A stretch of 64,000 nucleotides of DNA from an uncultured bacterium (GTDB taxonomy: Bacteria; Patescibacteriota; JABMPQ01; CAVVCK01): positions 19,050 through 83,049 of the forward strand of contig CAVVCK010000001.1 in assembly GCA_963746775.1 (NCBI GenBank). Direction: 5' to 3'. Of the stretch, positions 2,874-47,420 are shown in pieces. The notes below the pieces were generated by a model. The model saw nothing but the letters and a program-made list of their open reading frames with translations, was not told the DNA's origin and made no database searches. Every line of letters starts with the position of its first letter. Position 1 is the first letter of the stretch. Both the position numbers and the translations under genes were made by a program.

Positions 2874-5800
2874 ATGCCTCTAGAAAATATATTTAGAAAT
2901 TCTTTAGAAATTATTCCGAAAAAAGAAATTAAAACAAATATAGCAAGTTTAGATGATAAATTTAAGCCTTATTTTATATTAAATTTGCTAAATTTTACTA
3001 AATGCCTTGAAAATCCTTTACTAATATTTGCCTCAGAAGAAAGCAAAATAAATCTGTTATTTAACACATTTGCTTACTGGAATAAGTTTCTGTCACAAAT
3101 TTTAAAATTTGAAACCGCTTCTATTTATAACTACACTTTTAACAAAGAACATCTAGCTACAGAAGAAAAAATAAATTTTTCTAATGCAAAAATTATAGCC
3201 AATCTCTTCTCTAGAAATAAAGGCATTTACCTCTTCCCTATTGAATCAATTACAGAAAAAACTATATCTATAAATTCCTATAACAGCAAGATTTTAAAAT
3301 TAAAAAAAAATCAAGATGTAGATCTTGATCAATTACTCAAAAACTTAGTTACTCTCGGCTATAAAACTGAAAATGGTACTTTTATTCCTGGTTATTTTGA
3401 AAAGAGAGGTGGAATAGTTAACATTTTCCCTATTAATTATAAAAATCCAATAAAATTAGATTTGTATGGAAATAAAATTGAGAATATAAAGACTTTTAAT
3501 ATTAAAAGTAAAATAACAAGTAAAAACTTAGACCTAATTAATATATACCCCGCTCAAACAAATAGTTTAGAAAATAAAAACAGTTCTCTTATTCTTGATT
3601 ATTTAAATATTTATAAACCAAATATAATTTTAGATAATCCAGATACTTTTGAAAATTATTTAGATTTTAGCCAAACTGACAGATTAGCAACTTTTAAGAA
3701 AATAACCGATGAATGTAAGAGTATAGTTTTTAATAATCTTCCCTTAAATTCTAAAAACAATCATTTTTTAAACTATCAGAAGATTACACCCTACAGGAAA
3801 AATATAGCTTTATTTAAAAATAACATAATCAAAAAACAAAAAGATAATTATCAAATTATAATTATTACTGATTTTGAAAAACAATTTAAAAATATATTTA
3901 AAAATTTAAAAAATATTTATTTTGTCAAAAAGAAAAAAGTATGTTTTGAAAATATTAATCTAGTGTCAGGCTTTGATAATAAAAAGACAAAAACTCTACT
4001 CATCTTTGATCAAGAAATTTTAGGTGAAGAAATTGATATTAAAAAAAGAAAAAAAATAGATGAAGTGTTTATTTCAGATTTAAACCCGGAAGATTTTATA
4101 GTGCATATAGATCATGGTATTGGCATATTTAAGGGCGTAATTCAGCTAAATGTAGATGAAGGTCTAAGAGAATTTCTAATAATTGAATATGCTAAAGGTG
4201 ATAAATTATATTTGCCAGCTGAATATACCGACAAGGTTAGTAAATATATAGGTGCTGGTAAGCCTAAAATAAACCGTCTTCATGAAATTTCCTGGAAAGA
4301 ACTTAGAAAGAAAGTAAAAGCAGATGCGGAAAAACAAGCAAAAGAACTATTGCAAATTTATGCACAAAGAGAAACATCTTCTGGCTTTATGTTTTCTAAA
4401 GACACCCCCGAACAAAAGTTACTAGACAGCTCATTTGAATATCAAGAAACCCCAGATCAATTAAAAATTATAAAAGAGATTAAAGCTGATATGGAAGGAG
4501 GAGATATGCTTTTTAAAGAATTTAATATTAAGAAACCAATGGACAGGCTTGTTTGCGGTGATGTTGGTTTTGGGAAAACAGAGATAGCTATACGAGTTAG
4601 TTTTAAAGCAACTCAAGACAAGAAACAAGTAGCTATACTATGCCCTACTACTATTTTAGCAGAACAACATTTTGAGACTTTCTCAAAAAGATTAAATAAT
4701 TTTCCCTGTAAAATTGGAGTATTGTCTAGATTTAAAACAAAAAAAGAACAAAAAGAAATAGTTCAGAAATTAGCTGCTGGAAAAATTGATATTATTATTG
4801 GCACTCATAGATTATTATCAAACGATATAAAATTTAGTGATTTAGGTCTAATTATAATTGACGAGGAACAAAGATTTGGCGTAAAACACAAAGAAAAATT
4901 AAAAAAATTAAGACCAAGGGTTGATATTATTACACTTAGTGCCACTCCTATTCCTCGTACTTTAAATTTAGCCTTATCAAAACTAAAAAACATAAATATT
5001 CTGGAAACTCCGCCTGAGGGAAGATTAGCGGTAGAAACTCATATTCTCCCATACGATGATAAAAAAATTATTGAGGCTATTCAATTTGAAATAAAAAGAA
5101 ATGGTCAAGTTTATTATCTCCATAATCGTGTAGCAACTATTGATGTAGAGTTAAAGAGATTAAAAAAACTAATACCTAACGCTTCCTTCGGAATAATACA
5201 TGGACAATTATCTGAAAAAGAAATAGCTAATATGATGGATAAATTTAACAGAAAAAAAGAAATTGATGTCTTAATCTGTTCTTCAATTATTGAAAATGGT
5301 CTTGATTTACCAAATGTAAACACCTTAATCGTAGATAATGCTATTATGTTTGGACTGGCAGATTTGCATCAATTAAGAGGGCGAATTGGCAGAAGTAAAA
5401 GAAAAGCTTATGCCTATTTCTTTTACAAAAGTCAAAAATTAAAGAAAAAAGCGCATCAAAGATTAGAAGCCTTGCTTTCAGCCAAAGAATTAGGGGCAGG
5501 TTTTCAAATTGCTATGCAAGATTTAGAAATAAGAGGTGCTGGAAATATCTTAGGTGAACAACAGTCGGGTAATATTAAATCAGTAGGCTTAAATCTCTAT
5601 TGCCAATTATTAAATCAGGCAGTCAAAGAACTTGAAACTGGTGAGGTAGAAGAATTAGCTCTAGATATAACTATAGATTTACCCATATCAGCCTATATCC
5701 CTAAAACTATGATTCAAGATTCCAAGAAGAGAATAAAATTATATCAAGAATTAGCCAAAATACATGATTTAAACGAATTAATAATTTCAAAAAGAAAACT

Positions 5801-9539: not shown

Positions 9540-11690
9540 ATGTTAACTATAGATCAACTTATAAAAAAAATTGAAAAGAACTCTACAGATGTTGATCTAG
9601 AAGAGGTTAAAAAGGCTTACGAATTTGCAGCTAAATACCATAAAGATCAAAAAAGAAGAAGTGGTGTCCCCTTTGTTCAACATCCTCTAAGCGTAGCTTA
9701 TCAACTAGCTAGTTTTAAGTTTGATACAGCTACTTTTGTGGCTGCTCTCCTGCACGATGTTGTAGAAGATACTAAAGCAACCCCTAAATTAGTAAATAAA
9801 ATATTTGGGAGAGAAGTATTAAAATTAGTTTTAGGTGTTACAAAATTATCTAAAATTCAATTAGGCGAAAAAGCTGAGGAATATACTATTGAAAACTTAA
9901 GAAAAATGTTTTTGGCTATGGCTCAAGACATAAGAGTCGTAATTATTAAACTGGCAGATCGTTATCATAATCTAAAAACACTAAAATACTTAGATTCAGA
10001 GAAAAAAATACAAAAAGCTAGAGAAACAATGGAAATATATGCACCCCTAGCTAATAGACTGGGTATGGGAGAATTAAAAGGAGAACTTGAAGATCTTGCT
10101 TTTCTCCATTTATACCCCAAAGAATATAAGTGGGTTAGAGATTTAGTAGAAGAAGAAATCGAGAGAAGAAAAAAATATGTGGAAAAAATAAAAAAAGATT
10201 TGAAATTAAAGCTTAACGAAAATAATATAAAATATGTAGATATCCACGGTAGAGCGAAGCATTATTATAGTTTATATAAAAAATTAAAAAAACATGACAA
10301 TAATATTAATAAGATATATGACCTCACCGCTTTAAGAATTATCGTAGAAACTATTTCAGACTGCTATAAAACTCTGGGAATAATACACCAAAATTGGAGA
10401 CCCTTGCTTGGCAGAATTAAAGATTATATTTCTATACCCAAAAATAATGGTTATCAGTCACTACATACTACTGTTCTCTATCCTCCTGATATAACCATGG
10501 AAATTCAAATTAGAACTCCTCAAATGCATATTGAGGCAGAGTATGGAGTAGCTGCTGCTTGGCATTATTCTGAAAAAGATAAACCTAATGCAGGCGCTAT
10601 AGTACCTAAAAAACTTTCCTGGATTAATGAACTTATTAAGTGGCAAGATGAACTTAAAGATAATAAAAAGTTTGCGGAAGTCCTAAGAATTGATTTCTTT
10701 ATTGATAGAATATTTGTTTTTACACCAAAAGGAGAAGTATTTGATCTACCCGAAGAATCAACCCCTATTGATTTTGCTTATCAAATACATACAGACATAG
10801 GTAATCACTGCTATATGGCTAAAGTTAATAATAAAATCGCTCCCCTAGATTATAAACTTAGAAATGGTGATGTAATAGAAATACTAACTTCAGAAAAAAT
10901 AAAACCAAAAAGAGATTGGCTGAGTTTTGTACATACTAATCTAGCTAAAAACAGAATCAAAGATTGGCTAAAAAAACAAAATAAAGATAAAAATTTAAAA
11001 ATAGGAAAAATAATATTCAATCAGGAATTATCAAAAATAAAAAAGAAATCTTTAAAATTATCTATAGGATATAAAAATAGGCTAAATAAAACATTAACAG
11101 CTCTGAATTATAAAAATTTTGATGATCTATTGGTTGGTATTGCCCAGGGCGATATTACAGCTAACCAATTTATCAAAATTTTTTATTCTGAAAATGAAAT
11201 GTTACCGCCGGTTAAAAAATTTAAAAAATTTATTTTTTTTGAAAATAAAGAACATGAAAGAAAAGCAATCATAGAGAATGAAGAAGGCTTGCTGACTAAT
11301 ATAGCTAAGTGTTGTAATCCCAAATTAACAGACTCAATTGTAGCTCATATTACTAGAAATAAAGGAGCCAGTATTCATAAGGCCAATTGCAAAGAATTAA
11401 AGAAAAAAGAAAAAGGCAGAATAGTAAAAGCTAAATGGATTGAAAATAACCAAGATCAAAGAATAATAAAATTAAGATTAATCACTCTTGATCGAATTGG
11501 TTTAATTAGTGATATTTCCTCTCTAATTTCAAATTTACAAATAAGCATAGAAAACATCAAATCATTAAAATTAAACAATGACACTATTAATTTAATGATA
11601 AACATTGGTATAAATAATATAGAACAATTATCTTCAGTTATGGAAAGTCTAAACAAGGTTAAAGGAGTGCTAGAAGTAAAAAGAATGTAA
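9540..11690 (+). CDS. rel: Bifunctional (p)ppGpp synthetase/hydrolase (RelA/SpoT family)
   Basis: The HD hydrolase motif LLHDVVEDT is present. The protein has a RelA_SpoT synthetase domain and TGS and ACT-like C-terminal regions. Length 716 aa. Confidence 0.85.
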   Translation: MLTIDQLIKKIEKNSTDVDLEEVKKAYEFAAKYHKDQKRRSGVPFVQHPLSVAYQLASFKFDTATFVAALLHDVVEDTKATPKLVNKIFGREVLKLVLGVTKLSKIQLGEKAEEYTIENLRKMFLAMAQDIRVVIIKLADRYHNLKTLKYLDSEKKIQKARETMEIYAPLANRLGMGELKGELEDLAFLHLYPKEYKWVRDLVEEEIERRKKYVEKIKKDLKLKLNENNIKYVDIHGRAKHYYSLYKKLKKHDNNINKIYDLTALRIIVETISDCYKTLGIIHQNWRPLLGRIKDYISIPKNNGYQSLHTTVLYPPDITMEIQIRTPQMHIEAEYGVAAAWHYSEKDKPNAGAIVPKKLSWINELIKWQDELKDNKKFAEVLRIDFFIDRIFVFTPKGEVFDLPEESTPIDFAYQIHTDIGNHCYMAKVNNKIAPLDYKLRNGDVIEILTSEKIKPKRDWLSFVHTNLAKNRIKDWLKKQNKDKNLKIGKIIFNQELSKIKKKSLKLSIGYKNRLNKTLTALNYKNFDDLLVGIAQGDITANQFIKIFYSENEMLPPVKKFKKFIFFENKEHERKAIIENEEGLLTNIAKCCNPKLTDSIVAHITRNKGASIHKANCKELKKKEKGRIVKAKWIENNQDQRIIKLRLITLDRIGLISDISSLISNLQISIENIKSLKLNNDTINLMINIGINNIEQLSSVMESLNKVKGVLEVKRM

Positions 11691-38755: not shown

Positions 38756-38780
38756 GATTTATTTACCTGGCTTTAGTCAG
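38756..38780. repeat. REP-A element copy (GATTTATTTACCTGGCTTTAGTCAG; palindromic core ctgRctttagYcag)
   Basis: Matches the copies at 39386-39489, 40868-40926 and 48143-48165, the last in opposite orientation. Confidence 0.65.
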
Positions 38781-39307
38781 CTCTTACCAGTTTTAAACTT
38801 AGAGCTATCTTCTAAATCTAATTTTATAACATTTTTAACTATTTCCACAGTAAATTCAAGTCCATGTTCTCTAACAGCTTGTGAAAAACTAGAATATGGC
38901 GATTTATTTAATTCGCTAAAATCCTGCACTTCTTTATATTTTAGCAAATTACCAATAATATATCCCCAAACATTATAGAACATTCTTTCTTCTAAAATAA
39001 TTTTTGTCCAATAATTATCCCATATCCTACGATTTATGCCATCTATTTTGTTTAACACAAATGAACTTCCACCGTTTATTACCCTGATAATATCTTTTAA
39101 CCTATTTTTATCTTCTAAATAAAATAATAAGTGATAATGATCATAAGCTATACTATAAGCATAGATAGAAATCTTAAATTTATTTTTTATATTATTTAAC
39201 TGCTTTAAAATAATATTTTTCTTTTTATTAGTATTAAAATATTTCTCATGATTAAAAGTTGGTGTGGTTAAAAAATAGTAAGAATTATTTAGAATAACTC
39301 GTGGCAT
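38777..39307 (-). mobile_element. IS200/IS605-like Y1 (HuH) transposase, REP-associated tyrosine transposase type (RAYT-1)
   Basis: HuH motif DHYHLLFYL. Downstream region with Tyr-containing WDNYWTKII. 176 aa. Flanked on both sides by REP-A palindromes. Confidence 0.6.
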
Positions 39308-39320
39308 ACAATTTTAATAT

Positions 39321-39489
39321 CCGGCTAAAGCCGGGGAAATTACTTTTTTAAAAATTCATTAAAGCGATTTGTTTTATATAAAAATGATTTATTCACCTGA
39401 CTTTAGTCAGCCTATTCTTAAAAGTGATTTATTTACCTAACTTTAGTCAGCCTATTCTTAAAAGTGATTTATTTACCTGACTTTAGTCA
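39321..39489. repeat. REP-A cluster: hairpin ccggctaaagccgg plus 3 tandem ~39-bp units
   Basis: Units at 39386-39410, 39425-39449 and 39465-39489 (gatttattYacctRactttagtcag), each followed by the identical cctattcttaaaagt. Confidence 0.7.
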
Positions 39490-39590
39490 GTTATTTTATT
39501 ATACCAAATAACCATATACCTACACAAAATCTATTTTTCTGTTAAAATATTAGCATAATTAGTATTAATTAGTATATTAGCATCGACCCA

Positions 39591-40976: not shown

Positions 40977-41063
40977 TTGAAACTAATTATATTAATTGGG
41001 AAGCCCACTTTCAAACGCTAATCCAGGACGGATCAACTAGGTGGGCAATTTTTCGGTAGGTTA

Positions 41064-41810
41064 TTACTCACGAGAGATGGGCGGGGTGTGCGGGGTCCAG
41101 CAGATGGAATAGCAGCCCCGATATTCCCTCTCATCGAAGCGTGGTTGTGCCAAGTATCCCTCAATTCCGCTGGAAAGACCAGCCTCCCATTCCTCGCAAG
41201 TAGGGGTTGGAGTCTCAAAATCCCAGCAGTCACCCTCGAACAACAGGGCGACGCCAGTCACGTATTCCAGAGGGCATTCACATGTTCCCGAAAACGCGAA
41301 ACCTCTCCAACCAGGCTCACTATGAGACTCATCGTCCCAAGGAAACCCGGCCAGACGGTCCCAGTCTTCACATTGTGCCTCTGAGGAAGAATCGCAGATG
41401 GGCAAATCGCTATCGGAGTCAGTGTCGTCATCAAAGTCGAAATCAGAATCGGCGTCACCGTCCGTGTCTCCGTCTACATCACCGCCACCATCTCCATCGC
41501 TATCCAAATCAGAGTCGCTGTCGGAGTCACCATCACCATCCACTTCCATATCACTGTCCGAGTCCGTATCACCGTCAGAATCACTGCCTCCATCGCTATC
41601 CATATCTCCGTCAATATCCGAGTCGCTATCGGAGTCAACATCGCTATCGCTGTCTACGTCTCCATCGACATCGCTATCGACATCCGCATCCGCATCTGCA
41701 TCATTATTTCGTGATGCATGTCCACATGCTGCCACGACCGAAGCCGCGACAACCAACATGGTCAAAAACACTACGCCCCAAAGGGCCTTCTCTTGCTGAT
41801 GCTTTCGCAT
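41064..41810 (-). CDS. GC-rich secreted lipoprotein A: conserved leader, poly-Asp/Ser/Gly acidic repeat, C-terminal 6-Cys domain
   Basis: The probable start is the second Met (41810), with RBS gaggaggaaggg upstream. Signal peptide plus lipobox (VVAACG). Repeats (DSDVDGDVDSDSD)n. The Cys-rich C-terminal domain is paralogous to that of 43142..43894. About 53% GC by eye. Confidence 0.5.
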   Translation of the reverse strand: MRKHQQEKALWGVVFLTMLVVAASVVAACGHASRNNDADADADVDSDVDGDVDSDSDVDSDSDSDIDGDMDSDGGSDSDGDTDSDSDMEVDGDGDSDSDSDLDSDGDGGGDVDGDTDGDADSDFDFDDDTDSDSDLPICDSSSEAQCEDWDRLAGFPWDDESHSEPGWRGFAFSGTCECPLEYVTGVALLFEGDCWDFETPTPTCEEWEAGLSSGIEGYLAQPRFDEREYRGCYSICWTPHTPPISRE

Positions 41811-41944
41811 CCCTTCCTCCTCAGCCCCGGAGGGCTTCATCTATAACCTACTACGAAAAGATAAAGAGCTTTCCATAGTAATTTAAGCCTTAATTTATTA
41901 TAAAATAACGATTTAAAGCCTAAATTCCTACTTTAAGATATTAA

Positions 41945-41973
41945 ATTGTGTCAATTTATAATATATTTGTCAA
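41945..41973 (-). promoter_or_regulatory. Minus-strand sigma70-like promoter of lipoprotein A (conserved module TATTGACAAATAT)
   Basis: On the minus strand: TTGACA (41968-41973), a 17-bp spacer, then CACAAT (41945-41950). The -35 module is the same as at 44063 and 46119. Confidence 0.4.
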
Positions 41974-42015: not shown

Positions 42016-42747
42016 CTAAATATCCTCATCACTATAATCCAATATAGGATAATCCTCGAAACTAGAATTTATCCATTCTCTCCCCTTTTTCCTAATCCAA
42101 GTATTAAAGCTAGAAAAATTATAAAGATTTAGTTCTTCTATATTTTTTACTTTTTTGTGTTTAATAGAGTTGTTATGTATATAGTTGAAATGCTTATAGA
42201 AATCTTCTTCATCGCGAATGCAATGGTCCCAATATTGATACCATATTTTACGTTTTGAAGTATTATTTATTTTATTTAAAATCCTGGAACTATCTTTATG
42301 TATTTTTCTAATAAATTCTACTAGTTGATATTTAGACGCGAAATTCGTTTCACTCATTTCGCTATTCCTTAATTCATCACCTCTAGGATTAGCAAATTGA
42401 CTGGCCTGCCCGCCGGAGAGGCGGGAAGGAAATTTGCGTTCTGCAGCTGACGCGAAATTCACTCCGTTCATTTCGCTATTCCTTAAATCACTTTCTTTAG
42501 GATTAGCAAATTGAGCGAAGCGAAATTTGCGCTTTATATGAAATAATAAATGATAATGATTATCCATTATTACCCAAGCATAGATTTTTATATTAAATCT
42601 TTGAATAGATTTAATTAGTACGCTTTTTAATACTTCTTTTCTATTATCAGTATTAAAATAACAAATCTCTTCGTGCGTTCTAGAAGTTAAAAAATAAATC
42701 TGATTATCTCTATAAATATGTGGCGGACGATGTTTTTCTTTTGGCAT
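42016..42747 (-). mobile_element. IS200-like HuH tyrosine transposase (RAYT-2) carrying an in-frame insertion of its own REP-B palindromes
   Basis: HuH motif DNHYHLLFH. C-terminal WYQYWDHCIRDEEDFYKHFNYIHNN is RAYT-like. A roughly 70-aa segment (aa 72-140, nt 42328-42534) is encoded by two tandem REP-B units (FAQFANP appears twice). Possibly a pseudogene. Confidence 0.55.
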
Positions 42748-42756
42748 ATTTTTGTT

Positions 42757-42960
42757 TTTAGGATTAGCAAATTAAGTATAACAAAATTTGTGCTCTTTAA
42801 AATTACTAGGATTAGCAAATTGAGCTATTTATCCGCCAAAGAGGAGGAATGCGAAATTTGCGCTTTGTAAATTACCAGGATTAGCAAATTGACTGGAAGG
42901 AAATTTGCGCTACGTGTAGTAAGCGCGAAATTCCCCATTAGGGTCATTTCGCTAGTCCTG
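42757..42960. repeat. REP-B array: 3 units of AGGATTAGCAAATTGA...GGAAATTTGCGCT
   Basis: Palindromic arms GCAAATT/AATTTGC. Further copies at 42330-42545 (2 units), 45955-46070, and cores at 7205 and 36735. Confidence 0.65.
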
Positions 42961-43141
42961 ATTTTATTATTATATCAAAAAAACAGCCTATTTGCTGCTT
43001 ATGTGAAATGCTTAACTAATTGATGTGGAATTGTGAGCCCGCGTAAGATTGGATGTCTCTTACGCGGGTGTTCAAGAATGAACATGGGCTCCAGCTACCC
43101 GGGGTTACACTGGATTTTGGTAGGATTCGTTTTTTTGACGA

Positions 43142-43894
43142 CTAGAACCACTCGGGGTGGCAGTCACCGCCAGGGGGGAGGTCGCAGTAGGCGACGTTCA
43201 AGCACTCCCCGCCGGTCCTGCCGAGTGCCCGTTCCCCAGCGATCGCGTCCACCGACCCGTACGCAGCCTCAGCTTCGACGCAAGCGTCTCCGCTGTCTCC
43301 AGGACCCCAGTTCGTCGGAACCCAACATCCGTCGGGGAAACGGATAATGATCTGGGTTCCACCGGGAGTGACCTCGACAGCACCGGGACACCCTCCCCAA
43401 GCACCTGCTGCCCGCGGATGATCGAAAGCTTGACATTGCGAAATGTCGGCTTCCTCACACATGGGCTCGGGCTCGATCGGGGTCGTATCACCGTCGGAAT
43501 CGCCATCGCTGTCGGAGTCCGCGTCGCCGTCGCCGCCGTTGAGGTTGTTCTCGACGTTGACGTCGACATCGACGTTCACGTCGATCTCGGCACAATCCGC
43601 GACCCCGTTGCCGTCCTCGTCGGCGAAGCCCTCGTCGATCTGCCCGTCGCAGTCGTCGTCGATGTTGTTGCAAATCTCCGGAGCGCCGGGATAGACCGAG
43701 GGGTTGCTGTCGTTGCAGTCGCGGCCACCGTCGCCGACGGCCTCGAAGCTGTCCTGGTCGAGATCGTACACGTACGTCTCGATCGTATCCGGCCCGCAGC
43801 CGGTGTTGAAGGTCACCACGACCAGAAGGGTCGCGATGAGCGTTGCGGTTTCGATCAACTTGCCCCGAAGGGCCTTCTCGTGATGCTCTTGCAT
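43142..43894 (-). CDS. GC-rich secreted lipoprotein B: conserved leader, MopE-like Cys-rich metal-binding motif, acidic repeat, 6-Cys C-terminal domain
   Basis: Leader MQEHHEKALRG, compared with A's MRKHQQEKALWG. Lipobox FNTGCG. Motif RDCNDSNPSVYPGAPEICNNIDDDCDGQIDE. (DVNVDVDV)(DGDADSDSDGDSDGD) repeats. C-terminus aligns with A. About 65% GC by eye. Confidence 0.55.
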   Translation of the reverse strand: MQEHHEKALRGKLIETATLIATLLVVVTFNTGCGPDTIETYVYDLDQDSFEAVGDGGRDCNDSNPSVYPGAPEICNNIDDDCDGQIDEGFADEDGNGVADCAEIDVNVDVDVNVENNLNGGDGDADSDSDGDSDGDTTPIEPEPMCEEADISQCQAFDHPRAAGAWGGCPGAVEVTPGGTQIIIRFPDGCWVPTNWGPGDSGDACVEAEAAYGSVDAIAGERALGRTGGECLNVAYCDLPPGGDCHPEWF

Positions 43895-44044
43895 CTCTCT
43901 TCTCCTTGCGGCCCCTTGGGTCCGCCTTGTTTCCTCAAAAAAATCCTAGAAGGTACACCTTAAATTATTATTTATAATATTTTAAGGTGTAACTTCATTT
44001 AATTGCTATTTTTAAAGTACTACACTATTTTATTTTAACACTAT

Positions 44045-44073
44045 ATTATATCACTTTTTACTATATTTGTCAA
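44045..44073 (-). promoter_or_regulatory. Minus-strand consensus sigma70 promoter of lipoprotein B
   Basis: On the minus strand: TTGACA (44068-44073), a 17-bp spacer, then TATAAT (44045-44050). Confidence 0.55.
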
Positions 44074-44291
44074 TAGATTTCTTAATAATTCTTTATACCA
44101 GATACTAGCTTCTAAATACTATATTCTTGCCTTTTAGCAGCTCATATTTAGCATAAATCCCCTCCCTTATTATCTTGTTCTTGTGTTATCTTGTTATTTT
44201 GATTTAAGGAGGGTATTTTGCGTCAGCACAAGTATGATCTTTTTAATTTGATCAACTGTGCTGACGCAGGTGGGATTTTTGAGGTGGGAAA

Positions 44292-44624
44292 TTACCGGTG
44301 AGTGACAACCGTATGGTCGCCGTCAGACGCCTCCACGGCGCCCCATGTGCCGAGACCGACACCGGCACCGAGAGCTACGCTCCCGAAGCCGATGAGCAGC
44401 CCACAGGCCACTCGGTTCCGGTGACACCAGTCCGGCTGGGTTTCCACGGTCGTCGGACCTTCCACGTCGTCGGGAAGGGGGGTCGAGGTGACCTCGCCGT
44501 CCTCGTCCAGACCAAACTGAACGGGACGATCCTCGCGCACCACCTGAAAGGTGGACACGCCGCAACCGACCGAGCCGAACACCACGACCATCGCGATCGC
44601 CGCCAACTTCGTCATGTCTCTCAT
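44292..44624 (-). CDS. GC-rich small lipoprotein C
   Basis: Likely start MRDMTKL, with RBS aaggagaaggaaag upstream. Signal peptide plus lipobox FGSVGCG. About 60% GC by eye. The first Met at 44696 is less likely. Confidence 0.4.
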   Translation of the reverse strand: MRDMTKLAAIAMVVVFGSVGCGVSTFQVVREDRPVQFGLDEDGEVTSTPLPDDVEGPTTVETQPDWCHRNRVACGLLIGFGSVALGAGVGLGTWGAVEASDGDHTVVTHR

Positions 44625-44974
44625 CTTTCCTTCTCCTTCGTTCCTTGACCCTGCCATGACCCCCCTCTTTCTCAAGAGGAGGTCGGTTATGACCACCCTA
44701 AGGGGGGCCGTGTTTCCTTACCTCAAAATGTGAAATGTACTAACCTTGAAGGTATACCTAGAATTATTATATTTATAACAACTTAAGGCATAACTTCCCT
44801 TGTTCGCCGAAGCCTAATGGCGTAGGCGGATATTTTCTTCCTAATCTCTACTCCCTACTAACTACTAACTACTCACTAATAAAGAATTGGAAGCACCCGC
44901 GCATCAGTAGACATGGTAGGAACGAACCGAAGTTCGTCTATGTCATACTATAATGATGCGCGGGGCTTTTGAGG

Positions 44975-45655
44975 CTAGGGGCAGACTCGAGTATGCTGAC
45001 CACCGAAGTGAGTCAGCTCGATGCACCGTCGTCCGCGAGGACGGGGCGGCGCTTCTGCCACCTTCGTGGGGGTGGGGGGAACGGTGGGCTCCTCGGCGAC
45101 CGGGGTGGGCGGATTCGGCAGCCTTGGCGCAGGAGGCGTCTTGTTCGGGCTTGGGGCCTTCGCATGATCGTCCTCGTCGCAGTCGCCGCACTCTTCGATA
45201 CGGGTCAGAATTTCTTCCGCCCGGTCATCGATGTGTCCATTGACCGCTCCGACTCCTCTGTCGACCTCACTCGAGACGTGACCCTTGATGTCCGTCGCGA
45301 CACCGTCGGTGTGGGAATTGACGGCGTTGACCGTCTTTCCCAACTCCGACCGGAGCTGACCGAGGGTCACGCCGGTCGGCTGTCCCTTGACGGGTGCCGG
45401 CGCGGGGTTCGTCGGCGGGGGCGGCCGGTCGGGGGTCAGCGTGTTGTCCGCCTCCTGCGCTTCCGCGTCGCCACCGAACAGCCCGAGGGCCCAAGCTCCT
45501 CCGAATCCAAGCCCCACCAGAAGCACAACCATTACGATCGCCCACTTCCAGTGGGTCCTCACGTTGGCCGCGGCCCTGCGGATGCGCCCGGGCTGCGGTT
45601 CTTCGGTCACCGTCTCTGTCTCGGTCCCTTCTTCGGTCCCTGTCTCGTCGGCCAT
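44975..45655 (-). CDS. GC-rich single-pass membrane protein D with Pro-rich extracytoplasmic region (anti-sigma-factor-like topology)
   Basis: RBS aaaggagg. Acidic N-terminus. TM helix WAIVMVVLLVGLGFGGAWALGLF. Pro-rich segments PDRPPPPTNPAPAP and PPAPRLPNPPTP. Confidence 0.4.
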   Translation of the reverse strand: MADETGTEEGTETETVTEEPQPGRIRRAAANVRTHWKWAIVMVVLLVGLGFGGAWALGLFGGDAEAQEADNTLTPDRPPPPTNPAPAPVKGQPTGVTLGQLRSELGKTVNAVNSHTDGVATDIKGHVSSEVDRGVGAVNGHIDDRAEEILTRIEECGDCDEDDHAKAPSPNKTPPAPRLPNPPTPVAEEPTVPPTPTKVAEAPPRPRGRRCIELTHFGGQHTRVCP

Positions 45656-45954
45656 TTCTGGCCTCCTTTCTTTCTATCGTTTCCAACAATGAACTTCCAT
45701 CTTTCTTTCGATTGATTGAAGTCCGCGATTTTAAGAAACAATATTTATATTATTCCCTAAAAGCGAAACTCCAACCGTGTCCGCCAAAGCCTAATGGCGT
45801 AGGCGGATTTTTCATATAGCCTCAATTTATAAAATGTGCTCTCTTTAAAAAACAAATATCGTTTTATTAATCTTTCTTAATTAAGCTTTATTTGTCTTTT
45901 AATTATATGGATTTTAATGTGCAAGTTCTCACTAGCTCATTTCCTTAATCCTTA

Positions 45955-46070
45955 TCCCAGGATTAGCAAATTGACTGGCTTGCCCGCCGTCAGAGGCGGG
46001 AAGGAAATTTGCGTTTCGTACAGTAGGCGCGAAATTCGCTTCACTCATTTCGCTATTCCTTGATTCCAAA
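45955..46070. repeat. REP-B composite unit (isolated copy)
   Basis: caggattagcaaattgactggcttgcccgccgtcagaggcgggaaggaaatttgcg...gcgaaattcgcttcactcatttcgc matches the units at 42330-42545. Confidence 0.6.
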
Positions 46071-46100
46071 TTCCTAATTCCGTATTTTCAATAACACCGC

Positions 46101-46129
46101 AGTATAGCATATTGTAACATATTTGTCAA
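46101..46129 (-). promoter_or_regulatory. Minus-strand sigma70-like promoter upstream of protein D
   Basis: On the minus strand: TTGACA (46124-46129), a 17-bp spacer, then TATACT (46101-46106). Confidence 0.45.
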
Positions 46130-46430
46130 TACTATTTACCCACCTTTTTATATACTAAAAACAAGGCTTTTTTTGGGCTTAAATTAGACTACTCCAGATT
46201 AGACTTTTCTAAAAACATTGTTTTTATATAAAATATCTTTTTGCAAAATATTCGTAACAGCCTTACGGCTGTTAATCTTGATAATATTATTTTTTAGGAC
46301 TACCACTCGTAATGATGTTATTGTTTTAATAAAATTCTACATTCTAATGGATTTTTGCCCGCGCCAGAACTTATTAAGTTAAGACGCGGGCTATGAGATG
46401 CAGCGAACTAGTCGCTGCTTTGAGGTAGGA

Positions 46431-47420
46431 TCATGGAGGTGCTGCCCGGTAGGCTATCCCTATCTTGTCTTGCACCACGGCTTGACCGAGGTGCTCTGGA
46501 GTATCAGGTGGAATTTCTGAAATGTACGTATTCCACCCTGCTCCACAGACCGATAGGAAGAGATAGCGATCTCCCCTGCCGCGCAGCTCAGCGTACTGCC
46601 AGCCTCTCCATTGCCCCCGGCTTATCAACTGCCCAGGGATAAATGTCGGACTGACGTCTTCGCCAAAAACTGCTACGCAGGAGAAATACTCACTTCTCCA
46701 CCAAAGCCCCCGACCCCTACGGAAAATATTATCTACCGAGCCTTGATAGGTGGGGCTTTTCAACACCAGATTCCGTGGAGGTGGCGAACGCGGCTCAATC
46801 CGCTTGGAAGCCTGCTTTTTCGCCTTTGTCGCCTGAATCGGCCGACGCACCACCTTGCTGTGCGACAAACCCAGAGACTGAAACCACGGAGAAGGAGAAG
46901 GCACAGAAATCCAAATAATATAACCCAAACCAGCCAAAATCGATACTAGGCAAAAACCGACGAAAACACGCAATTTCCAAGGCGAGGGCTGCCAGCCCAT
47001 ATAATCAATCTCGATTTCTTTTTCAGAAGAGTCATCTTCACTATCTGAATCAGAACCAGTCTTGACGTCGCCATGGTCTTCTTCAAAATCAGCACTATTG
47101 ACACTCTCTTCCGGAGAGCTACCATCACTCTGATTTTCCGAGTTGGCTCCCCCCTTGCCATCTTGACTTTCTCCAATCCCGATTATTGACTTCCAAGTTA
47201 AATCCTCGGGGTCAATTCCGGAATATCCCGGCACTGTGCTATCCCCTCTCAGGGGACTTTCCGAACATATTCTCACAGAACGGGGAGGCTCCGGCGGCCT
47301 TAAGATATGACGAGAAGGAGGAACAAGCCCCCTTAACTCAGACATACAATATCCACAATTCGTACAAAAAGCATATTCTACCTCATGTCCACACTTCGGA
47401 CACTTTTTCATCTCACTCAT
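46431..47420 (-). CDS. Zinc-ribbon membrane protein E
   Basis: N-terminal zinc ribbon CPKCGHEVEYAFCTNCGYC. Acidic S/D/E segment. One TM helix VFVGFCLVSILAGLGYIIWISV. C-terminal domain of unknown function. About 50% GC by eye. Confidence 0.4.
   Translation of the reverse strand: MSEMKKCPKCGHEVEYAFCTNCGYCMSELRGLVPPSRHILRPPEPPRSVRICSESPLRGDSTVPGYSGIDPEDLTWKSIIGIGESQDGKGGANSENQSDGSSPEESVNSADFEEDHGDVKTGSDSDSEDDSSEKEIEIDYMGWQPSPWKLRVFVGFCLVSILAGLGYIIWISVPSPSPWFQSLGLSHSKVVRRPIQATKAKKQASKRIEPRSPPPRNLVLKSPTYQGSVDNIFRRGRGLWWRSEYFSCVAVFGEDVSPTFIPGQLISRGQWRGWQYAELRGRGDRYLFLSVCGAGWNTYISEIPPDTPEHLGQAVVQDKIGIAYRAAPP

Follow-up and report, generated by a model that had tools for sequence, protein, structure and literature searches.

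The 64,000-nucleotide (nt) stretch of DNA analysed here (the window; contig CAVVCK010000001.1 of assembly GCA_963746775.1) comes from an uncultured bacterium of the Patescibacteriota and carries, on its minus strand, a gene for a tyrosine transposase of the kind associated with repetitive extragenic palindromes (REPs), a RAYT, designated RAYT-B. This gene harbours, in frame, four REP units of its own family (REP-B) in the surface loop between strand beta3 and helix alphaC, and one doublet is shared with relatives. The reading considered probable is that the encoded segment is disordered and the gene functional, the additional units being the result of local copy-number change. The gene belongs to an AT-rich genome with relatives mostly among the Patescibacteria (Magasanikbacteria-like), and the 67 encoded residues would form a disordered excursion that spares the catalytic core, so that the gene stays functional. 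The features of the gene itself are as follows.

42016-42747, minus strand: coding sequence of RAYT-B, a TnpAREP-type Y1 HUH enzyme, 243 amino acids plus stop (open reading frame list, Pfam and NCBIfam models, profile search, Foldseek)
42538-42564, minus strand: HUH motif DNHYHLLFH on strand beta3, codons 62-70 (translation; invariance of H64 and H66)
42166-42243, minus strand: codons 169-194, WYQYWDHCIRDEEDFYKHFNYIHNNS, comprising the RAYT W/D-H-R motif and the helix of the catalytic Tyr189 (alignment to E. coli TnpAREP)

The product of the open reading frame (ORF) at 42016-42747 is a RAYT/TnpAREP protein, because it scores above the cut-offs of curated models, its family profile matches PDB entry 4er8_A and the same entry is the best structural match found by Foldseek. 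The translation contains DNHYHLLFH at residues 62-70 (NHYH being residues 63-66) plus WYQYWDHCIRDEEDFYKHFNYIHNN, and H64, H66 and Y189 are invariant across 85 homologs. The protein matches Pfam Y1_Tnp with 35 bits (cut-off 23) and NCBIfam NF047646 (REP_Tyr_transpos) with 86.5 bits (cut-off 80), the latter in two stretches flanking the insert, and scores 19.7 bits against NCBIfam NF033573 (transpos_IS200), far under the cut-off of 55. A profile built from the 85-homolog family retrieved E. coli TnpAREP (4er8_A) from the PDB with E=6.6e-18, aligning WYQYWDHCIRDEEDFYKHFNYIHNNS with IWQPRFWEHAIRN...DYIYINPVKHG and IWYQYWDHCIR with IWQPRFWEHAIR, and the RAYT-specific W..W(E/D)H..R motif is thus present. 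Foldseek, run on the AlphaFold model, likewise placed 4er8_A first (target-normalised template modelling score 0.70), with further matches to 2a6m, 2vjv and 2xm3, which have the IS200/IS605 TnpA Y1 fold. The C-terminal region has an SS motif in which both serines are invariant in 27 aligned sequences and S213 in all 85; this tail, assessed by eye, was aligned to the FST tail of E. coli TnpAREP. Across the clade the HUH motif is mostly NHYH, with NHFH in the relatives P0016 and P0019 and NHCH in P0011, and the tyrosine motif is YIHNNP in most close relatives, YIHDNL in P0004 and YIHNNS in the window. By analogy with the E. coli enzyme, RAYT-B would bind and cleave REP-B single strands.

The REP-B family consists of two related hairpins, H2 (AGGATTA-GCAAATT-loop-AATTTGC) and, on the opposite strand, H1 (AGGAATA-GCGAAAT-loop-ATTTCGC). 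An H2 followed by an H1 forms an inverted doublet with heads outward, which is the arrangement of REPINs and of bacterial interspersed mosaic elements (BIMEs) and is clean at 45959-46060 and 42877-42959. Ten REP-B hairpins occur in the window, all within 42338-46060, and the 14-mer AGGATTAGCAAATT has 6 occurrences against 0.25 expected, a number that none of 100 shuffles reached. The units inside and outside the gene are listed here.

42331-42531, minus strand: REP-B cassette carried in frame as codons 73-139 (RKFRFAQFANP...SETNFAS), in the loop from the HUH strand to the next helix (alignment, per-residue confidence of the structure model, RNA fold)
42338-42369, minus strand: in-gene hairpin H1 with a 9-nt loop (hairpin search)
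42385-42438, plus strand: in-gene hairpin H2 with a 30-nt loop (hairpin search; loop and spacer comparison with the related locus L001)
42406-42426, no strand: 21-nt G+C-rich mini-palindrome CCTGCCCGCCGGAGAGGCGGG nested in the H2 loop, adding 7 codons (evident against the short H2 at 42877-42909 and against L001)
42452-42483, minus strand: in-gene hairpin H1', head AGGAATA, stem GCGAAAT/ATTTCGC, 9-nt loop
42499-42531, plus strand: in-gene hairpin H2', head AGGATTA, stem GCAAATT/AATTTGC, 9-nt loop
42760-42959, no strand: upstream REP-B array adjoining the start codon, made of H2 42760-42792 (degenerate), H2 42808-42862, H2 42877-42909 and H1 42925-42959, the last two forming an inverted, REPIN-like doublet; the orthologous array of L001 is at 9858-9987
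42981-43000, minus strand: terminator-like hairpin with TGATATAAT after it, lying upstream of the REP array; the sequence is conserved in the related loci L001, L057 and L059
45959-46060, no strand: distal REP-B inverted doublet, H2 45959-46013 and H1 46029-46060, 3.2 kb from the gene and syntenic with L001 6592-6672

The cassette measures 201 nt and 67 residues, its bounds being set by alignment with insert-less homologs, and its four hairpins form two inverted doublets that read H1, H2, H1', H2' along the plus strand. Within the gene the repeat has a period of 114 nt, its copies being 83 % identical, the central pair (42385-42483, 99 nt) has the REPIN arrangement of two inverted REPs with a short spacer, and blastn of the insert against the remainder of the window gave E values down to 3e-18. 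An earlier sequence-only reading of this DNA had proposed a RAYT with a stretch of its cognate REP DNA in frame and, as one option, tolerated in a loop after the HUH motif. All of this is borne out, the Y1 assignment by the Pfam model, the enzyme type by REP_Tyr_transpos and the 4er8 fold match, the nature of the segment by the same hairpins outside the gene, and its place by alignment with insert-less homologs and the AlphaFold model. Some details required adjustment: the segment is real and had been placed at 42328-42534, where the alignment gives 42331-42531; QFANP is encoded twice (RFAQFANP and QASQFANP) but FAQFANP is not; and the array outside the gene has four hairpins instead of the three units described. 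The doublet at 45959-46060 had not been listed.

No REP-B unit was found downstream of the RAYT-B stop codon in the 64-kb window. The upstream array may lie within the RAYT leader transcript, since the terminator-like hairpin upstream of it is conserved in relatives. A promoter-like site, TTGACA-17-CACAAT, is situated downstream of the RAYT stop codon (41945-41973, minus strand) and is also conserved in relatives. A G+C-rich palindrome (CCCGCC-loop-GGCGGG) is nested in some H2 loops, at 42406-42426, at 45979-46000 and, in degenerate form, at 42830-42851; the nested hairpin of the distal doublet (H2 45959-46013) is 22 nt long and resembles the palindrome at 42406-42426, and a related palindrome is free-standing at 45778-45808. 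Its presence gives loops of 30 nt in the gene and of 31 nt outside genes, and it has the look of an independent mini-element for which REP loops are the insertion site.

At the protein level, AlphaFold modelled the core on both sides of the insert with a predicted local distance difference test (pLDDT) score of 94-98 and residues 72-140 with 41-62, and the insert is accordingly predicted to be a disordered excursion in the surface loop between beta3 and alphaC with the catalytic core intact. The insert position corresponds in E. coli TnpAREP to the short LPEGDDDF loop. Folded as RNA, the cassette has a free energy of -75.3 kcal/mol against -49.3 +/- 4.2 for shuffled sequences (z=-6.25). An Rfam search returned only a miRNA-hairpin match far under threshold, and a protein search with the 66-residue insert alone, seeking REP-B in other proteins, gave zero candidates.

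Comparison with relatives separates what is old at this site from what is peculiar to the window. The eight closest proteins (P0001-P0008, 58-83 % identity) all have one or more REP-B doublets at the same position; P0002, P0003 and P0005 are among those with a single doublet, and P0001 has two. The one-off invasion of the gene that had been suggested is contradicted by these homologs. The locus L001 (the one encoding P0002) and the window are collinear over 20.6 kb, with about 70-78 % nucleotide identity, and three places, namely the gene, the upstream array and the distal doublet, hold REP-B in both, with no new locus in either. The in-gene part of L001 is a single doublet that matches the 3' doublet of the window, having the same loop type and an identical spacer; the GACTGG..AAGG loop of the window H2 and the adjoining spacer AGAGGTGATGAATTA match this doublet. 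Relative to L001, the window has one more in-gene doublet (30 codons), one more nested palindrome (7 codons) and one more upstream H2. This difference is a local copy-number change and not dispersal or new insertion elsewhere, because REP-B occupies the same three places in L001.

Three origins were weighed for the extra doublet: duplication in tandem, insertion of a doublet with heads outward (42385-42483, 99 nt) and recombination between two allelic doublet types with the spacers KESDL and RGDEL; the spacers speak against simple insertion into the old spacer. An assembly artefact was rejected, since an independent assembly (L055, encoding P0001) has the same two-doublet form. The second doublet and the 21-nt palindrome would be local in-frame changes that arose by unequal recombination, slippage or REP-mediated addition beside a resident REP, and they do not speak for mobility across the genome; at this site a doublet is common to all near relatives examined, and REP inserts recur across the wider clade. 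In a separate observation, the insert-less proteins P0016 and P0019 are about 70 % identical to the window protein in the C-terminal half and much less so in the N-terminal half, with a break near the insert site, where recombination could have occurred.

A more dynamic explanation, also raised by the sequence-only reading, is that REP-B transposed into the gene lately and that the family is now spreading. The additional doublet and upstream H2 of the window would fit it, as would the orthologous in-gene H1 loop variants that differ among close relatives (AGTGAAACG and ACCCCTAAGGGG) and that are both also found outside genes, which suggests replacement of units. The collinearity of the three REP-B places with a locus this diverged, the identity of only 83 % between the two in-gene units and the two-doublet form of P0001 in an independent assembly argue against it, and recent mobility is therefore considered improbable, the evidence being of a changed local copy number only.

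A second alternative, which takes up the pseudogene named by the same source, is that the insertion inactivated the transposase and that the frame is open by coincidence. The 67-residue insert does lie between two catalytic motifs, Pro194 of relatives is Ser in the window, and the equivalent insert of the related locus L024 contains a stop codon. The core of RAYT-B nevertheless has a ratio of nonsynonymous to synonymous substitutions (dN/dS) of 0.10-0.13 against orthologs, and the 0.10-0.12 obtained with four orthologs does not differ from what these give when compared with one another; the catalytic HUH, Tyr189 and the W/D-H-R motif are all intact; the flanking core is modelled with high confidence; and all indels are multiples of three. 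In a tblastn scan of species-representative genomes that did not require an intact ORF, the reading frame runs uninterrupted through the insert in 14 of the 15 insert-bearing genes that could be read, L024 being the exception. Within the window clade, loop length is a multiple of three in 18 of 18 in-gene units and in 7 of 17 extragenic ones (Fisher p=1e-4, the units not being independent). A pseudogene is consequently very unlikely, given the low core dN/dS, the intact motifs, the open frames and the loops in multiples of three, and the RAYT-B gene looks still functional. The L024 gene (Magasanikbacteria) has, at 3209-3274, a palindrome nested in an in-gene REP loop with an in-frame TAA, the frame being otherwise unchanged downstream, so that this RAYT either lost its function recently or is split.

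The substitution pattern within the insert differs from that of the core. Codons for the same amino acid are identical in 89 % of REP-coded columns against 65 % of core columns, REP being the higher in 36 of 36 pairs, and the proportion of synonymous differences (pS) ranges over 0-0.30 for REP columns and 0.42-0.67 for core columns, with a REP-column dN/dS of 0.4-1.3. In-gene stems across the clade show compensatory pairs at position 1 (G-C in 7 units, A-T in 8), position 3 (A-T or G-C) and position 4 (A-T, G-C or C-G), and these double changes appear in the protein as correlated amino-acid swaps (KF...QF, DF...QS, TF...QC). The in-gene units thus appear to evolve under constraint at the nucleotide and not the peptide level, either through selection for a function or through homogenisation with neighbouring REPs. 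Each unit keeps the head AGGAnTAGC and a 7-bp stem, and the insert DNA would still behave as a REP.

These data bear on the idea that the segment is an ordinary lineage-specific protein domain, the extragenic REPs being fragments copied from the gene. Peptide motifs (KF..QFANP and RNSEMS..NFA) do recur in homologs down to about 40 % identity. The suggestion that the segment might be normal in related transposases also holds for about half of it, which is present in the nearest relatives, but the wider family mostly has a loop of 2-4 amino acids. Substitutions that ignore codon structure, with the dN/dS and low pS given above, amino acids that change in pairs preserving the pairing of the DNA, units that differ at the same site in how many there are, how they are oriented and which stem family they belong to, predicted disorder and absence from most of the family together make this idea scarcely credible.

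A further explanation is compatible with the preferred one and adds a function to it, namely that the in-ORF cassette is kept by selection as a cis-acting element, whether as an autoregulatory binding or cleavage site on its own gene or mRNA, as an mRNA structure that slows translation, or as a protected 'master copy' co-inherited with the enzyme. It is supported by the in-gene units, with their conserved synonymous sites and compensatory changes in the stems, and also by the match of in-gene heads and stems to the extragenic REPs of each genome even at 35-60 % protein identity, the strong RNA fold and the recurrence of REP units at the same loop in several lineages. Most family members, however, including the close relatives P0013 and P0019, lack the insert yet have flanking REP doublets; the nucleotide conservation is equally explicable by gene conversion with neighbouring REPs or by recent replacement; and L024 shows that growth of the loop can bring in a stop codon. 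Such a retained function is regarded as possible and rather unlikely.

The reading of RAYT-B as a functional gene with four tolerated units of its own REP therefore remains preferred, and the following points weigh against it. AlphaFold cannot demonstrate that a 67-residue loop is harmless, and the window protein has Ser at position 194 where relatives have Pro (YIHNNP). The protein-database sample favours intact ORFs, and the statistics rest on homolog pairs that are not phylogenetically independent. REP-B is confined to within 3.8 kb of the gene in the 64-kb window, which leaves a dispersed, high-copy status unproven, and a scan of metagenome contigs for the 15-mer AGGATTAGCAAATTG gave at least 120 single chance matches, with the REP-B hairpin in none of those listed, and is uninformative on REP-B abundance. 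The REP-B head, AGGA[T/A/C]TAGC, provides [T/A/C]TAG in place of the canonical GTAG; the relative L008 has the head GGAGTAGC with GTAG, and other relatives have GTGAC.

Relatives of RAYT-B identified by tblastn in species-representative genomes belong mostly to Candidatus Magasanikbacteria and other Patescibacteria. Most homologs are 171-185 amino acids long, and in them just 2-4 residues separate the HUH strand from the helix that follows; many clade members have 25-116 extra residues at this loop, encoded by DNA that matches the flanking repeats of their own genome, and an internal insert of at least 15 amino acids is present in 31 of the best 82 family cluster representatives. The insert of L008, for example, is 96 % identical over 46 nt to a copy lying just upstream and 100 % identical over 30 nt to one just downstream; in L011 five repeats stand in tandem within the gene, each matching an upstream copy; and the inserts of L014, L018, L020 and L043 likewise match their own flanking REPs. 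Orientation and stem family vary by lineage, with heads inward in the window type and outward in L013, L014, L017 and L022. The close insert-less relatives L183 and L184 have flanking doublets only, and comparison of the filled site with these two empty sites revealed no recognisable target-site motif in AT-rich sequence at about 60 % identity. In a neighbour-joining tree of the core (173 columns) insert-bearing and insert-less proteins are interleaved, a pattern that does not separate multiple gains from multiple precise losses.

A different loop is occupied in L182, where the RAYT (P0027, 270 amino acids) has a tandem array of the flanking REP GCGCACTCTCGTGCGCTAATCC between alphaC and the next strand (4380-4560); the flanking REPs lie at 3898-4090 and 4814-5100, and the annotated N-terminus of P0027 appears to run through the upstream REPs. 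The most far-reaching interpretation, put forward tentatively and with low confidence, is that a Patescibacteria RAYT lineage distinct from the published RAYT subclass 2.4 repeatedly and independently took its own REP into the same loop (sometimes a second loop, as in L182), and that the in-gene hairpins are actively maintained and co-evolve with enzyme specificity as a self-targeting regulatory site or protected master copy instead of being neutral passengers.

The only other Y1 gene in the window is a second RAYT (38804-39304, minus strand), which lacks an insert, shares 37 % identity with RAYT-B and is associated with a different repeat, the REP-A repeat CTGACTAAAGTCAGGTAAATAAATCA, with three copies upstream and one downstream (flanks 38760-38800 and 39390-39510). 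The two REPtron-like systems share no repeat family, as had been noted beforehand. A REP-A-like hairpin (CCGACTAAAGTCGGGT.AATAAATCA) stands directly after the stop codon of a REP-B-type RAYT or insert-less cousin in L055 (1033-1070), L057 (1214-1250), L059 (1372-1400) and L184 (3520-3560); none is present at that position after the RAYT-B stop codon in the window, where the family belongs to the other RAYT.

The window has a G+C content of about 30 %, with G+C-rich islands (45-58 %) at 41000-41850 and 43000-47000. The ORFs at 41064-41840 and 43142-43894 (both minus strand) encode Asp/Ser/Gly-rich proteins with a hydrophobic N-terminus, the latter matching Pfam Cu-binding_MopE with 49 bits; both are syntenic in L001, and genes with MopE motifs also adjoin the RAYT in L184. 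The cumulative G-C skew climbs as far as about 11 kb and declines steadily from there to 64 kb, strand composition switching near 12 kb.

The spread of REPs and the role of RAYTs in the cell are still poorly understood, and a RAYT that carries its own substrate in frame offers a compact natural test case, in which orthologs with one, two or more units provide defined junctions for studying REP gain and loss. Synonymous conservation and compensatory changes within the gene would point, unless they stem from homogenisation with neighbouring REPs, to selection acting on the DNA or RNA of REP hairpins even where these are translated. The main phenomenon is already published. Quentin et al. 2018 (BMC Genomics 19:475, PMC6006769) described REPs inserted within tnpAREP genes without disruption of the frame as a 'unique feature of subclass 2.4' (RAYT group 4), the inserts being variable in length and sequence, built from short repeats of DNA and, by prediction, forming a peripheral extension, with the same REPs flanking the gene. 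What is added here is a candidate-phyla lineage that matches the described subclass poorly, quantitative evidence of functionality and the local copy-number difference from an ortholog; no selection analyses are reported for subclass 2.4 in that study.

Subclass 2.4 is known from Cyanobacteria, Bacteroidetes and scattered phyla, and no Patescibacteria were found in the supplement of that paper (PMC6006769). By Table 1 of the paper, the subclass has the motifs NH[IFV]H and YIxNNP, lacks a tail domain and goes with REPs that contain GT[AG]G and are long or of the 'double foot' type. RAYT-B resembles it in the variable, REP-derived, in-frame insert in the beta3:alphaC loop and in the tyrosine motif, which is YIHNN(P/S) in the RAYT-B clade (YIHNNS in the window). 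It differs in having NHYH and a conserved C-terminal SS tail (recognised by eye and without the authors' HMMs), and REP-B has A/T-rich 7-bp stems (G-C, C-G, then A-T in H2) with a [T/A/C]TAG head, whereas the REPs of subclass 2.4 are long with three G-C pairs at the stem base or are of the 'double foot' type. RAYT-B therefore looks like a member of a new Patescibacteria-type lineage that has the same feature and fits subclass 2.4 poorly by its published signature.

With the E. coli REPtron (Nunvar 2010; Ton-Hoang 2012, PMC3333891; Messing 2012, PMC3479197, PDB 4ER8) RAYT-B shares the HUH plus Tyr single-strand nuclease fold and a gene situated beside cognate hairpins with a 5' tetranucleotide head in inverted, REPIN/BIME-like doublets; in E. 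coli the REPs only flank the gene, whereas four units lie inside the RAYT-B ORF and none downstream within the window. The definition of a REPIN as two inverted REPs with a short spacer (Bertels and Rainey 2011) describes the pairs at 45959-46060, 42877-42959 and 42385-42483. With IS200/IS605 elements, which have a TnpA Y1 enzyme and subterminal hairpins, the system shares the enzyme fold and hairpin-based recognition, but there is no sign of a multi-copy mobile unit and the locus is collinear with the diverged L001. In-frame palindromes are also known from the Rickettsia palindromic elements (RPEs) and intragenic REPs (Di Nocera et al. 2013, PMC3733652), which add 20-82 residues, are tolerated in loops and commonly form dimers or clusters; their hosts are unrelated housekeeping genes, with no transposase among those in the supplementary files of that paper, whereas the host gene of REP-B encodes the enzyme thought to act on the repeat.

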